A stretch of DNA of 64,000 bases from Parachlamydiales bacterium (GTDB taxonomy: Bacteria > Chlamydiota > Chlamydiia > Chlamydiales > SM23-39), in the NCBI GenBank assembly GCA_016931275.1, contig JAFGFA010000014.1, positions 11,954-75,953 on the forward strand, in the 5' to 3' direction. Position numbers and translations under genes: made by a program. Position 1 is the first letter of the stretch. The number at the start of each line of letters is the position of its first letter. The notes beneath the pieces are model-generated. The model did not search any database. It saw only the letters and a program-made list of their open reading frames with translations, and had not been told where the DNA came from. Positions 41,697-59,299 of the stretch are shown piece after piece.

Positions 41697-41786
41697 ATTT
41701 TCTAGAAAAATCCATTAAAAGTAATGTGATCTATAATCAATAACTTTCTAATTTTAAATATATTAAATAAATATAAAATTTTTTCG

Positions 41787-41815
41787 TTGTCGAATTGTAC
41801 CAAAATTGGTACAAT
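41787..41815 (+). promoter_or_regulatory. candidate promoter (TTGTCG-N17-TACAAT) with embedded perfect palindrome (operator) for the higBA-like operon
   Basis: -35 TTGTCG at 41787-41792 and -10 TACAAT at 41810-41815. A 9-bp perfect inverted repeat, TTGTACCAA-AA-TTGGTACAA, at 41795-41814 covers the spacer and -10. Confidence 0.4.
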
Positions 41816-41838
41816 AAAGTTAAATTGAGTATGATACC

Positions 41839-42195
41839 GTGGTAAATTCGCCTCCTAGAAAAATTGTATCTGTTGTTTTTTGGAAAGAGATAAATGAAAA
41901 GGAACCGGTTAGAGAATGGCTAAAAACATTAACTAAGAGCCAAAAAAAAATTATTGGAGAGGATGTTAAAACAGTAGAAATGGGTTGGCCTTTAGGTATG
42001 CCTCTTGTCAAATCAATGGGCAAAGGTATTTGGGAGGTTAGAAGTAATTTTAAAAATGGTATCGCGAGAATACTATTTAAAATGCATAAAAATCAGATGG
42101 TGCTTTTACATGGCTTTATAAAAAAAAGTCAAAAAACGCCTCTGAAAGATTTAGAAACCGCTCTTAAAAGAGCTAAACAACTTGAAGAGTTATGA
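41839..42195 (+). CDS. higB: type II toxin, HigB/RelE-ParE superfamily (phage Gp49-like)
   Basis: 118 aa with GTG start. EKEPVREWLKTLTKSQKKIIGEDVKTVEMGWPLGMPLVKSMGKGIWEVRSNFKNGIARILF...VLLHGFIKKSQKTPLKDLETALKR matches the Gp49-like toxin pattern. Confidence 0.8.
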   Translation: MVNSPPRKIVSVVFWKEINEKEPVREWLKTLTKSQKKIIGEDVKTVEMGWPLGMPLVKSMGKGIWEVRSNFKNGIARILFKMHKNQMVLLHGFIKKSQKTPLKDLETALKRAKQLEEL

Positions 42196-42467
42196 AAAAA
42201 CATATTGGTTCTAATTTCAATGATTTTCTTGAAGAAGAAGGATTTCTTGAAGAAGCAGAGTCCGTAGCGGCCAAAAGAGTTTTTGTTTATCAACTTGAAA
42301 AAGAACTGAAAAAACAAAAAATCGATAAAATGGAATTTGCAGAAAGATTAGAAACAAGTCGATCTGCAGTTGATCGTATTTTAGATCCCGAATGTCCTTC
42401 TACTTTAAAAACATTTTCAAAAGCAGCTAGAGCAGTAGGGAAACATCTTAAAATTAGCTTGGCATAA
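42192..42467 (+). CDS. higA: type II antitoxin, XRE-family HTH (HigA-like)
   Basis: ATGA overlap with the toxin stop. GSNFNDFLEEEGFLEEAESVAAKRV...MEFAERLETSRSAVDRILDPECPSTLKTFSKAARAVGKHLKISL is typical of the partner antitoxin. Confidence 0.8.
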   Translation: MKKHIGSNFNDFLEEEGFLEEAESVAAKRVFVYQLEKELKKQKIDKMEFAERLETSRSAVDRILDPECPSTLKTFSKAARAVGKHLKISLA

Positions 42468-42534
42468 TCTGAGAGCAGAGTAAAATAATCTCAAAAATAT
42501 TAGAATATTAAGTTTGAAAAATAAAAAACGTAAA

Positions 42535-43104
42535 ATGTTAGCACCTGTTCTTGAAACCTCAAGATTGATCTTAAGATATTGGAAACAAAAGGATCTTTTC
42601 CCTTTTTCTATAATGAATGCAGACAAAAGAGTTATGGAATTTTTGCATAAGATTCTTTCATTGGAAGAGAGCGATGCTTTAGCAGAAAGGATTCAAAAAG
42701 AATTTAAAGAAAAGCCTTACGGTTTTTGGGCCATAGAAGTGAAAAAGGGAACCTCATTTATTGGTTTTGTAGGATTACATTATTTAGATCCTATAGAATT
42801 GCCAGCTCATTTTACTCCATGTATCGAAATAGGGTGGAGACTTGACTTTGATCATTGGGGAAAAGGCTATGCTTTTGAAGCTGCGTCTAAAGTGCTTGAA
42901 TATGCATTTCAAATACTTAACTTAAAAGAAGTTGTAGCCTATACAGATATAAATAATATGCGTTCTAGGAAACTCATGGAAAAATTAAAAATGATTCATA
43001 ACTCTGAAGAAAACTTTGTTCATCCTAAAACTTCTGAAAATAGTCCTTTAACGAATTGTGTTCTTTATAGATTAAAGAATCCTAAAAGGTGTTCCTATGG
43101 CTGA
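42535..43104 (+). CDS. GNAT N-acetyltransferase (RimJ/RimL-like)
   Basis: LETSRLILRYW N-terminus and WGKGYAFEAASKVLEYAF. The track starts at TTG 42514. Confidence 0.8.
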   Translation: MLAPVLETSRLILRYWKQKDLFPFSIMNADKRVMEFLHKILSLEESDALAERIQKEFKEKPYGFWAIEVKKGTSFIGFVGLHYLDPIELPAHFTPCIEIGWRLDFDHWGKGYAFEAASKVLEYAFQILNLKEVVAYTDINNMRSRKLMEKLKMIHNSEENFVHPKTSENSPLTNCVLYRLKNPKRCSYG

Positions 43105-43753
43105 TTATGTATTAGTTCATGGTGGCAATATGCCAACTGATGCATGGAATAAACTGGTTAAGAAAGAAGAATATCCTCCAGGAGGATATATGGGAGGAAA
43201 AATCTGGGATAAAGCCATTTTAGAGCTTAAATCTAAAAATCATAGGGCATTTGCTCCAACATTGCTGGATGCAGAAAAAAACAATCTTTCTGATCATGTT
43301 AAGCAGATATGCAATCTAATCAAGGAAAATAGATTAAAAGATGTCATTTTAGTTGGTTCAAGTTATGGAGGGATGATCATCACTGGAGTAGCTGATAAAA
43401 TGCCGGATAAAATCGGCCTTTTGGTCTATCTTGATGCTGCTTTACCCGATCCAGGACAATCATTGTTCGATCTTCTTATTGCAGCGAATTACGATCCGAA
43501 GCCTAGTTTTGAAGCATTTCCAAAGGCTTATATTGAAAAAATTTATTTTGATCCTCAAAAGATAGATGCATTACCTAAGATCTATATCCAATGTACGGAA
43601 AGCTCTTTTGTATCTATGACTAACATAGATAAACAAAAAGTTTTCAAAGGGAAAAATTGGCAGTTTTTTGAATTACCCACTTCCCATATTCCTCAAGCTA
43701 CAATGCCTGAAAAATTAATAGAGCTATTATTAAATTTTGGTATGAATTTTTAA
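43097..43753 (+). CDS. alpha/beta hydrolase (methylesterase/SABP2-like)
   Basis: YVLVHGG N-terminus, nucleophile elbow VGSSYGG and C-terminal His (PTSHIP). 8-nt overlap with the GNAT gene. Confidence 0.72.
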   Translation: MADYVLVHGGNMPTDAWNKLVKKEEYPPGGYMGGKIWDKAILELKSKNHRAFAPTLLDAEKNNLSDHVKQICNLIKENRLKDVILVGSSYGGMIITGVADKMPDKIGLLVYLDAALPDPGQSLFDLLIAANYDPKPSFEAFPKAYIEKIYFDPQKIDALPKIYIQCTESSFVSMTNIDKQKVFKGKNWQFFELPTSHIPQATMPEKLIELLLNFGMNF

Positions 43754-43784
43754 CAGCATGTACTATGCAGAAATTATTCTTGGG

Positions 43785-57909: not shown

Positions 57910-58037
57910 GAAGTAATCTCTAACTTCCTAAAAAGGCTAAAATAATTTTGATTTTTATCCAATTTAAAATTCCGAACGCATACTACCCTATAAGAGGATT
58001 ATTTATGATTAGGGTCAGAACCACTCTATCAACAATC

Positions 58038-58325
58038 TTATCGTAGAACAGAAACAGATTTGCTCTGTTCTGCTTCAGCAATTTCGACACATTCCTCAGG
58101 ATTATATCCTAATTCTTCACACCATCGAATAGTAGAAAAAATGATATTACCAAGCTCTTTTTTCAGTTCATAATCAGTATGTGTTGCAAGATCTTTAGGA
58201 GCATTTCTTTCCCATCTACAAATATCGCCAAACACTTTTCCCATTCTAACAATAATTTCAGAAAGAACTAACTTTTGGTCACCCCAAATTTTTTTCCCTT
58301 TTTTAGATAATTCTTTTATTTCCAT
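58038..58325 (-). CDS. MazG-like nucleotide pyrophosphohydrolase (small, 95 aa)
   Basis: The all-helical pattern LSEIIVRMGKVFGDICRWER...ELKKELGNIIFSTIRWCEELGYNPEE is typical of the MazG/NTP-PPase fold. Confidence 0.72.
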   Translation of the reverse strand: MEIKELSKKGKKIWGDQKLVLSEIIVRMGKVFGDICRWERNAPKDLATHTDYELKKELGNIIFSTIRWCEELGYNPEECVEIAEAEQSKSVSVLR

Positions 58326-58447
58326 AGCTCCTCATTTGTATGTATTTTTTACAATAGATCCGCCGGCTTCATGAGTCCTTTAAAAGAAGATAGCTCCCTT
58401 ATCCTAAGGATAAGACAGAATCCTAATAAAAAGCCTTATTTATCATT

Positions 58448-58894
58448 TTATTCAGATTCAATGCCTATGTATAAATCTAGAACAATATTTTGATGATCTA
58501 CCGCTCTTTTGTCATATATTTCAAAATCTGTTTTATAACAACGTTTTCCCCCCAGCTGTTTAGAAGACATCTCCCAAATTTCTTTCCAAGCGTTTACAAC
58601 GACATCAGGCATAGGAGCGGGATTGGTCGTAAACTTTATATATTGTTGGTGCGGAATCACCAGCTTCTGTAACCCTTCCGGCAAAAAACAAGCCCAAGAA
58701 ACTACTTCTTCTCCAATAAAATACGTATAAGATCCTCGATAATCCGTCTCATAATTTGTATAAGCACAAAATGTTGTCCCAGGCTCCTTTCGATGCGGAA
58801 TTTTTTCAAAAAGAGCTTCATGAAAATATTTCTGTATACAAGGGAAAATATTTCCCTTCATTTTATCTAACTCCTGCTCATAACCTGTACGCAC
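58448..58894 (-). CDS. GyrI-like / AraC-effector-binding-domain small-molecule-binding protein
   Basis: 148 aa. PGTTFCAYTNYETDYRGSYTYFIGEEV...IPHQQYIKF...VVNAWKEIW...RCYKTDFEIYD fits the GyrI-like (SbmC) domain. Confidence 0.68.
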   Translation of the reverse strand: MRTGYEQELDKMKGNIFPCIQKYFHEALFEKIPHRKEPGTTFCAYTNYETDYRGSYTYFIGEEVVSWACFLPEGLQKLVIPHQQYIKFTTNPAPMPDVVVNAWKEIWEMSSKQLGGKRCYKTDFEIYDKRAVDHQNIVLDLYIGIESE

Positions 58895-58925
58895 ACAAAT
58901 ACCAACTAATAGATAGCATAGGTAT

Positions 58926-59100
58926 CATGGCATCTATCCTTATTACCAGTCCTGTTATTATTCCTTTTTGCGTATCTTACATTGGTGCAACTTGTTTACC
59001 TTTAATTCCAGGAGCAATGCTCTCTGGATTGGGATATGGACTTTGGCAGATGACTCAACGTCTAGAACAAAACGAGCAAAGAGATCCACAGATAATTTGA
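58926..59100 (+). CDS. possible small 2-TM membrane peptide (57 aa)
   Basis: Internal ATG of track ORF 58756-59100 gives MASILITSPVIIPFCVSYIGATCLPLIPGAMLSGLGYGLWQMTQRLEQNEQRDPQII. The upstream part of the track ORF is antisense to the GyrI-like gene. No homology evidence. Confidence 0.2.
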
Positions 59101-59135
59101 TGCAAAAAGACGTATAACTCTGTGATTGTTGCAGA

Positions 59136-59299
59136 TAGTGCTGTTCCCCATTTAGAGGCCAGAGCAGTTTGATTGCTCCTAAGAAACAGGAGTACGACTA
59201 GTTTTATGATTATAAATAAATCAAAAACAGAGATCATTACCTTGGATGAATGTCGGTATCTTTGGTCTTGAATGGATAAAATCATCCTCTCTTTCTATA
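59136..59299. repeat. repeat R, copy B (right edge of the accessory island)
   Basis: See copy A. It lies 64 nt upstream of the first core gene (rluB-like). Confidence 0.75.

Follow-up and report, generated by a model that had tools for sequence, protein, structure and literature searches.

A probable decayed composite island at a tRNA-Tyr integration hotspot of the Chlamydiales

How did some 17.6 kb of accessory genes come to lie directly behind a conserved tRNA pair in the reduced genome of a Parachlamydiales bacterium, and can this DNA still move? The stretch occupies positions 41,697 to 59,299 of a window of 64,000 nucleotides (GenBank assembly GCA_016931275.1, contig JAFGFA010000014.1), between tRNA-Thr/tRNA-Tyr on the left and a gene for an RluB-like pseudouridine synthase on the right. 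A first-pass annotation, made from the letters alone, had described it as an accessory island inserted directly 3' of the tRNA pair; both tRNAs were confirmed, as were accessory genes up to position 59363. Our analysis suggests that it is probably a decayed composite island at a tRNA-Tyr integration hotspot used across the order, and the island itself is immobilised, no longer able to move. The genome holding the window, called G000 here (1.21 Mb, 32 contigs, 99% complete; the window is C28:11954-75953), falls in Chlamydiota by its relatives and by the nearest matches of its proteins, and was compared with 30 relatives (31 genomes with G000). Copies of tRNA-Tyr were sought in a 150-genome sample of the order and the cargo in 15 further genomes; tRNAs were called with ARAGORN and Rfam, domains with Pfam, and defence and toxin-antitoxin (TA) models with PADLOC.

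The left border is sharply defined. A block consisting of surE, SSF, PP-loop ATPase, SEC-C and the tRNA pair is contiguous in most of the relatives, with protein identities of 46-60%, and conserved synteny ends at tRNA-Tyr in every genome, the content beyond it differing genome by genome. The first island gene of G000 begins 142 nt past tRNA-Tyr, and an Rfam scan of the island returned nothing beyond the two tRNAs.

The island also differs from the rest of the genome in composition. Its GC content is 0.3346, against 0.3826 for the genome, and none of 389 windows of 17.6 kb placed across the genome (standard deviation 0.0153) is as low; the lowest-ranking windows are those overlapping the island, so that the AT-richness first noticed by eye turns out to mark the lowest 17.6 kb of the genome. 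By tetranucleotide distance the island ranks among the top 2.2%. When ranked among 761 long open reading frames (ORFs), the genes from HigB to a 95-aa ORF fall mostly in the lowest 1-7% for GC, the exceptions being the genes for a PPDK-like protein (21st percentile), a Cass2 protein (16th) and a Fic protein (44th). The flanks have a GC content of 0.384-0.389, and there is a sharp edge at the rluB-like gene. Inside, three blocks can be told apart, namely A (41.7-46.3 kb, 0.312), B (46.8-52.4 kb, 0.359) and C (53.3-59.3 kb, a mix of 0.390, 0.311 and 0.366), and their borders are two remnants of insertion sequences (IS). Two other places in the genome are candidates for further islands or special regions: C32:42000-60000, with the most deviant tetranucleotide composition of the genome at 42-54 kb, and C21:46000-66000, with its second-lowest-GC region at ~50-62 kb.

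To what use tRNA-Tyr is put can be read from the relatives. Several of them contain extra copies of the last ~53 nt of the gene, the likeness stopping abruptly upstream. Our alignment A1 shows the stretch between the anticodon loop GACTGTAAATCC and the 3' end to be identical in the extra copy and in the resident tRNA-Tyr of G020, G004, G014 and G024, and to have the same extent, with few changes, in G028; ARAGORN does not call these partial copies as tRNAs. In the 150-genome sample, an extra match was present in ~20 of the 136 genomes with a tRNA-Tyr match, nearly always starting at tRNA position 28-33. The copy lies downstream, on the same strand and the same contig, in at least 11 genomes, at distances of 0.9 kb (G159, G014), 1.6 kb (G165), 3.2 kb (G035), 3.8 kb (G024, G004), 10 kb (G028), 11.3 kb (G093), 14.5 kb (G020), 16.7 kb (G117) and 17.8 kb (G091).

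Integrases are found where such copies would call for them. A tyrosine integrase of 357-395 aa is encoded on the same strand 0.3-0.45 kb past tRNA-Tyr in G020, G117, G091 and G093, which represent four families, and the four proteins are 37-44% identical to one another. In G006, a member of the same family as G000, an integrase of this type lies 2.3 kb away from the tRNA pair. Taken together, the partial copies and the adjacent integrases identify tRNA-Tyr as an order-wide bacterial attachment site (attB), and they supply the mechanism that is missing in G000. With intact integrating elements at the same site in relatives, the island is ordinary in kind. The apparently complete elements, of 11-18 kb, are L035 (G020:C22) 1022-15661, G117:C9:23043-39831, G091:C1:2640390-2658274 and G093:C58:141-11596, and they are candidates for active mobile elements in the Chlamydiales. 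The G020 element encodes DUF3987, a Zn-ribbon/Toprim primase, a helicase and an HTH/M78 regulator, a module seen in G020 only.

Other islets are bounded by attachment-site (att) repeats and have no integrase, as in G028 (where an IS and metabolic enzymes are enclosed), G024 and G004. The 3.8-kb islet of G004, L030 (G004:C10) 2322-6195, encodes a U-box protein, and that of G024, L034 (G024:C3) 1314-5186, an ankyrin-repeat protein and a trypsin-like protease. These states can be arranged as a putative decay series, from the complete element through att repeats alone to neither, with G000 placed at the last stage beside G017, G029 and G011. Another outcome at the hotspot is found in G022, where the contig C1 carries two full tRNA-Thr/tRNA-Tyr pairs on one strand (115652-115825 and 127815-127994), 12 kb apart, which is a full duplication and not a partial att copy.

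The corresponding machinery was then sought in G000. Matches to the integrase family PF00589 are confined to C22 and C10, where they form an XerC/D-like pair present in every genome, and the G020 integrase as a query reached the same two loci weakly (E 7e-10 and 2e-6). A six-frame search with stops read through, using PF00589 and the G020 integrase, gave no remnant on the contig of the window. Blastn-short at word size 7 with tRNA-Tyr plus 23 nt downstream, and with tRNA-Thr, yielded chance-level matches of 9-12 nt only, the best ones in the window being 11-12 nt long with E>=0.2, and a BLAST of the whole G000 genome found no duplicate of the tRNA-Tyr 3' end that could serve as a flanking repeat. 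The place of the integrase, 0.3-0.45 kb downstream of the tRNA, is taken by HigBA, and no distal ~53-nt copy is present. Among the island ORFs there are no Pfam families of the G020-type DUF3987/primase/helicase/HTH/M78 module, and no excisionase, replication, conjugation or phage structural genes; its mobility genes are two transposase fragments, with no integrase. The first-pass annotation, which had seen neither an integrase nor an att duplication of the tRNA 3' end, was right on both counts.

The right border has a different character. It had been proposed that housekeeping genes stop at the tRNA pair and resume at the rluB-like gene. The first half of this stands, the left flank being conserved up to tRNA-Tyr; the second half is not fully correct. 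The rluB copy in the window is a patchy paralogue, found at >45% identity in ~11 of the 31 genomes, and it is 37% identical to the universal rluB-type copy of G000 at C15:40049-40702. The proC type that follows it (315 aa, 60070-61017) has a 65% identical counterpart in G011, on another contig, and a 41% identical one in G029, the other relatives having 27-33% paralogues only; since the type is restricted to two relatives, the supposed housekeeping flank is itself not core-syntenic. The rluB-like gene (59363-60058) is 81-82% identical to a copy on G004:C2 (L013 9079-9777), a genome in which the flanking surE, SSF and PP-loop proteins reach only 53-58%. A recent transfer shared with G004 was considered and rejected: at the DNA level the identity is ~78%, with third-position changes, and the likeness is confined to the ORF and ~40 nt of promoter.

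The rluB-like gene and the tRNA pair nevertheless belong together. They share a contig and an orientation in G017 (10.6 kb apart), G029 (9.7 kb) and G011 (25 kb), which are three other genera. A linkage repeated in three genera cannot be chance, and the tRNA pair and rluB must therefore be old neighbours with a variable interval between them. The contents of that interval are different AbiEii and GNAT proteins, an alpha/beta-hydrolase, beta-lactamase-fold proteins and AAA_14/DUF4143 in G017; Fic, PRiA4_ORF3, an HD protein, DUF3568 and BipA in G029; and HlyD/ABC-2, DUF1254/1214, KdpABC, choloylglycine-hydrolase family proteins and a GNAT 54% identical to that of G000 in G011. Judging from these gene orders, the tRNA-Tyr/rluB stretch is a long-lived variable interval and not one insertion into a fixed junction. 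Between tRNA-Tyr and rluB, the gene order of G000 is shared by none of the 30 relatives and 15 further genomes, in which most of the cargo is missing or scattered, in keeping with the suggestion of the first-pass annotation that the island is old and decayed or was assembled by successive events.

Table 1. Features of the island and of its two borders; positions refer to the window.
Feature	Position	Strand	Basis	Remarks
tRNA-Thr (TGT)	41534-41608	+	ARAGORN; Rfam RF00005, 72.7 bits	With tRNA-Tyr, last conserved feature of the left flank
tRNA-Tyr (GTA)	41614-41697	+	ARAGORN, Rfam	3' part (~41644-41696, anticodon loop to 3' end) is the counterpart of the att core of the relatives
HigB-like toxin (Gp49, 118 aa) and overlapping 91-aa partner	41839-42467	+	PF05973, 1.8e-22, full length	First genes past the tRNA
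GNAT acetyltransferase (Acetyltransf_3)	42514-43104	+	Pfam	
Alpha/beta-hydrolase, 218 aa	43097-43753	+	Pfam	Intact
Gene debris	43785-44706	-		Orphan 83-aa ORF (43785-44036); second alpha/beta-hydrolase without its N-terminal part, in two frames (44066-44706)
AbiE pair (type IV TA / abortive infection)	44651-46059	-		AbiEi intact, 257 aa; AbiEii truncated, 222 aa
IS4/IS5-family remnant 1	46301-46731	-	Pfam	DUF4096 fragment, ORF 46321-46563
Three overlapping genes	46828-52353	+	Pfam	MFS+acyltransferase, 742 aa; PAP2_3, 282 aa; PPDK_N/Rph_4th/PEP-utilizers, 829 aa
IS remnant 2 and ~100-nt repeat	52603-53051	-	Pfam, 1-50 of 112	DDE_Tnp_1_5 fragment (52603-52839); repeat 52954-53051
Fic-domain protein	53269-54225	+	PF02661, 1.4e-14	Motif HPFNDGNGRIARM intact in the translation
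Partial segmental duplication, copy A	54279-54570	.		Fragment of the 95-aa ORF (54279-54405) and ~130-nt repeat (54439-54570)
DUF1796 (240 aa), NERD (219 aa), DUF1796 paralogue (261 aa)	54724-57909	-	Pfam	GC of block 0.311
95-aa ORF	58038-58325	-		No Pfam family
Cass2/GyrI-like ligand-binding protein	58448-58894	-	Pfam	
~130-nt repeat, copy B	59173-59304	.		Low-GC region ends here on the right; the rluB promoter follows directly
rluB-like, S4 and pseudouridine synthase	59363-60058	+	Pfam	Right flank; GC at the 97th percentile

The genes carried by the island are given in Table 1. The inventory of the first-pass annotation (TA systems, IS remnants, Fic, DUF1796 and NERD proteins, a lipid operon) agrees with Pfam and PADLOC, with AbiEii being truncated. 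Next to the tRNA, the HigB ORF overlaps that of its partner by 4 nt, the layout of a HigB gene followed by its antitoxin gene; the 91-aa partner has no Pfam match and a weak PADLOC match (PDC-M64B, 1.3e-4). The genes are at the 2nd percentile for GC, and HigBA-type pairs of 50-71% identity occur at other sites in G002, G024, G029, G020, G030 and G129. From domain content and layout, this is an apparently intact toxin-antitoxin pair. The GNAT acetyltransferase has homologues of 45-63% identity in at least 15 of the 30 relatives, the G011 copy (54%) being the one that lies within that genome's own tRNA-rluB interval, and the gene is probably ancestral to the interval. The intact alpha/beta-hydrolase has a 69% identical homologue at G017:C130 and a 46-aa fragment (63%) within the tRNA-rluB interval of G017. 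The second hydrolase is split over the ORFs 44066-44575 and 44497-44706, and Pfam covers only the C-terminal part of Abhydrolase_3, its homologues in the relatives being 308-349 aa long. The AbiE pair is not full length on both sides: AbiEi matches PADLOC over 7-243 of 252, and AbiEii is cut (4-180 of 260 in PADLOC, 2-162 of 238 in Pfam). Homologous pairs, of 54-57% identity, were found only in G024 and G014 among the 30 relatives.

Block B (GC 0.359) holds three overlapping genes that, from their domains, form a putative membrane-lipid or small-molecule modification module. The first (46828-49056) encodes an MFS-acyltransferase that is 39-45% identical to Chlamydiota Aas-type fusions of ~1150 aa, its nearest proteins being those of Chlamydiota; it lacks the AMP-binding domain of these fusions and ends in a hydrophobic C-terminal tail. 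The full-length Aas-type gene is absent from G000, where only a 31% MFS paralogue was found, on C7. The PAP2 protein had one partial match among the 30 relatives. Over its whole length, the PPDK-like protein shares 50-53% identity with proteins of Verrucomicrobiota, whereas family paralogues in the relatives reach 35-39%; a scan of species-representative genomes for close relatives gave no match. In its domain order (49864-52353), PF27448 (Rph_4th) stands between PPDK_N and the swivelling His domain, which is the layout of rifampicin phosphotransferases and not of PEP synthase.

In block C, the Fic protein matches SoFic / PDC-S04 in PADLOC at ~2e-12 and has a GC content (0.390) unlike that of its neighbours; no orthologue was found in the 30 relatives, where matches were at the level of the motif only. 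The NERD nuclease-domain protein carries an N-terminal hydrophobic segment and is 70-84% identical to metagenomic proteins, the named matches being to Verrucomicrobia (73-75%) and Legionellaceae/Legionella (57-72%), and none of the 30 relatives has a homologue of it. Between the DUF1796 paralogues the identity is 43%, and DUF1796 was found elsewhere only in G002, G015, G024 and G153 among the 30 relatives and the 15 further genomes. The 95-aa ORF has a 72% identical homologue in G012, and Cass2 has homologues in G117 (78%), G027 (66%) and G024 (63%), all at unrelated sites. DUF1796, the 95-aa ORF and Cass2 match no PADLOC model, and no complete known multi-gene defence system was recognised in the island.

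Decay and rearrangement are visible throughout. Where at least five fragments or pseudogenes had been claimed, we counted six: AbiEii, the split hydrolase, the 83-aa ORF, the two transposase fragments and a 127-nt copy of the 95-aa ORF. IS remnant 1 is 88.6% and 73% identical to similar remnants of ~400 bp on C17, and the ~100-nt repeat beside IS remnant 2 recurs on C4 and C20. The 127-nt copy (54279-54405) is 93% identical to 58155-58281, part of the 95-aa ORF (direct repeat D2), and the piece next to it, 54439-54570, is an 87% identical copy of 59173-59304 (direct repeat D1); in the second copy the Cass2 gene separates the two duplicated pieces. The latter repeat belongs to a four-copy, ~100-nt family, found in the window at 54439-54570 and 59173-59304 and in the genome at C23:19-125 and C12:2801-2896. 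On the minus strand, a hydrophobic ORF of 27-28 codons (MIS/TSV..LFIVIKLVVLLLLRS.LPGPV*) is kept after a GAGG/AAGG motif. The repeat also has a CTCCTA..TAGGAG hairpin and no Rfam match, and by these features it could be a small membrane peptide or type I toxin-like gene.

These observations can be arranged in a plausible history. In the relatives, elements with a tyrosine integrase recombine with the ~53 nt at the 3' end of tRNA-Tyr, regenerate the tRNA and leave a partial copy at their far end. In the G000 lineage, integration of one or more such elements may have brought in AT-rich foreign DNA, after which deletions would have removed the integrase, the distal repeat and, if there was one, a replication module. 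IS4/IS5-type elements would have inserted and decayed, and now bracket a three-gene module that may have been acquired separately. One deletion could have clipped both AbiEii and the hydrolase, the DUF1796 / 95-aa-ORF segment would have been partly duplicated, and the apparently intact HigBA pair next to the tRNA may help to retain the region.

Several observations weigh against a decayed island of this origin. No integrase remnant and no degenerate right-hand attachment site (attR) is left, so that G000 itself offers no proof of site-specific integration. An empty tRNA-Tyr/rluB site was sought in the 30 relatives and none was found, the linked pairs always being 10-25 kb apart. A search of the 15 further genomes placed no G000 cargo within tRNA-Tyr elements, whether complete or att-bounded, the sole hint coming from G129, where a HigBA pair and an orphan partial copy of tRNA-Tyr lie ~2.5 kb apart. 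The GNAT gene is widespread at core-like identity and present in the G011 interval, and a hydrolase fragment lies in that of G017, which leaves room for vertical inheritance of some of the content; on this comparison a minority of the island genes may be ancestral to the interval. The low GC content could come partly from relaxed selection in a reduced genome rather than from foreign origin. Finally, an independent assembly (Logan) is interrupted at each of the IS remnants and at the repeat of the 95-aa ORF, and the order of the blocks thus rests on one metagenome-assembled genome (MAG).

Some of these points would fit an ancestral variable region shaped by gene loss, small-scale recombination and IS activity, with no integration at tRNA-Tyr in the G000 lineage and with a low GC content due to relaxed selection and AT-biased mutation. 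The spread of GNAT, its position in G011 and the hydrolase fragment in G017 speak for this, as do the tRNA-rluB linkage without att repeats in G017, G029 and G011, the lack of integrase and att in G000, and the AT-richness of GNAT, which equals that of the clearly foreign genes. We nevertheless consider it unlikely: the NERD and PPDK-like proteins have their nearest neighbours in other phyla and are both missing from the 30 relatives, at least 11 related genomes demonstrably use tRNA-Tyr as an att site, and the IS remnants bracket a compositionally distinct block. HigBA, AbiE, DUF1796, the 95-aa ORF and Cass2 are, moreover, sporadic and non-syntenic across the relatives.

It is very improbable that foreign contigs were joined through repeats into a chlamydial MAG contig by an assembly or binning artefact. 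In its favour are the draft state of the genome, in 32 contigs, the ends of Logan contigs at the IS remnants and the repeat just named, and the resemblance of some of the cargo to Verrucomicrobia or Legionella genes. However, the Logan contigs cover both ends of the region. When an independent strain was sought by exact-protein match, these contigs of the single run SRR13394437 were all that was found (100% identical, hence giving no polymorphism information). One has its start within tRNA-Tyr, at 41621, and continues with identical sequence across HigBA, GNAT and the hydrolase, a second runs from IS remnant 1 to IS remnant 2 and ends at ~53074, and a third carries Cass2-rluB-proC-M32; the first and the third thus support both outer junctions of the island independently. 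The MFS-acyltransferase is nearest to Chlamydiota proteins, the IS remnants have diverged copies elsewhere in G000, and island genes have chlamydial homologues in other genera. A single, recent and still mobile element, such as an integrative and conjugative element, an integrative mobilisable element or a prophage, would also adjoin a tRNA and could carry TA modules, and a length of 17.6 kb is within the range of complete tRNA-Tyr elements in the relatives (11-18 kb). That reading is effectively refuted by the missing recombinase and att repeat; excisionase, replication, conjugation and phage structural genes are equally lacking, and the three compositional blocks and six gene fragments also speak against it. 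A decayed composite island therefore remains the likely explanation.

Known systems provide a frame for this locus. The plasticity zone of the Chlamydiaceae lies near the replication terminus, is not known to be defined by a tRNA att site or integrases, and has MACPF, PLD, cytotoxin, trp and guaAB as hallmark genes. Like it, the island is a single hypervariable interval between conserved flanks in a reduced intracellular genome, with lineage-specific accessory and effector-type genes; unlike it, none of the hallmark families is present among the island ORFs by Pfam. The cumulative GC skew shows no reversal within the window, in a genome that is a 32-contig draft. Classical tRNA-targeting integrative elements, of the P4-like and pathogenicity-island type, carry a tyrosine integrase. 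The relatives display the same arrangement, in which the tRNA is followed at once by an integrase gene, then by cargo and a direct repeat of the 3' part of the tRNA, and the DUF3987/primase/helicase module of the G020 element recalls P4-type satellites and integrative mobilisable elements. G000 in contrast lacks all the mobility parts, and what remains is position, composition and cargo. The clustering of HigB (Gp49), AbiEi/AbiEii, a SoFic-like Fic and NERD within 15 kb resembles defence and TA islands; the truncated AbiEii does not, nor does the NERD protein, which matches only the NERD part of PglW, and weakly (2.8e-7).

The closest described chlamydial case is Pam100G of Protochlamydia amoebophila UWE25, a 100-kb island with tandem tRNA-Gly, 17-bp direct repeats, a partly G+C-rich composition and an F-like tra unit, which also holds phage-related genes and a Doc/Fic-type toxin (PMC548262, where tRNA-targeting integrative elements and genomic islands are summarised as well). 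Both are tRNA-adjacent, mosaic and compositionally deviant islands of an environmental chlamydia with transposase fragments and a Fic-type gene. The G000 island differs in lying at tRNA-Tyr, in its size of 17.6 kb, in being AT-rich and in having neither repeats nor transfer genes.

If the decayed island is what we take it to be, 17.6 kb, or 1.5% of a reduced 1.21-Mb genome, can be assigned to acquired or decaying DNA. HigBA, the lipid module, Fic, DUF1796/NERD and the GyrI-like protein are likely to be functional, in contrast to the gene fragments; judging from domains, the intact cargo (the lipid module, Fic, DUF1796/NERD, the GyrI-like protein, GNAT and the hydrolase) probably serves accessory envelope, stress or defence functions. 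The integrase-bearing element family at the 3' half of tRNA-Tyr is a more interesting by-product than the island itself. We put forward tentatively, at a little short of an even chance, that this half-gene is the target of an undescribed family of 11-18-kb integrase-bearing elements in many families of the Chlamydiales, some copies perhaps being active, and that it is a main route by which effector-like and defence genes (U-box, ankyrin, Fic, TA, NERD) enter obligate intracellular chlamydiae, the G000 island being one fossil of it. That the hotspot is undescribed is weakly supported by our literature search, in which no paper joined chlamydiae, tRNA-Tyr and integrative elements. In environmental chlamydiae, one conserved tRNA-Tyr site gathers different cargo genus after genus, with intact integrase elements in at least four families, and this gives a testable handle on the gene exchange of obligate intracellular bacteria with Verrucomicrobia- and Legionella-like neighbours. 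If our reading is true, organisms without genetic tools could be given a natural system for site-specific integration in the form of this integrase with its ~53-bp site.

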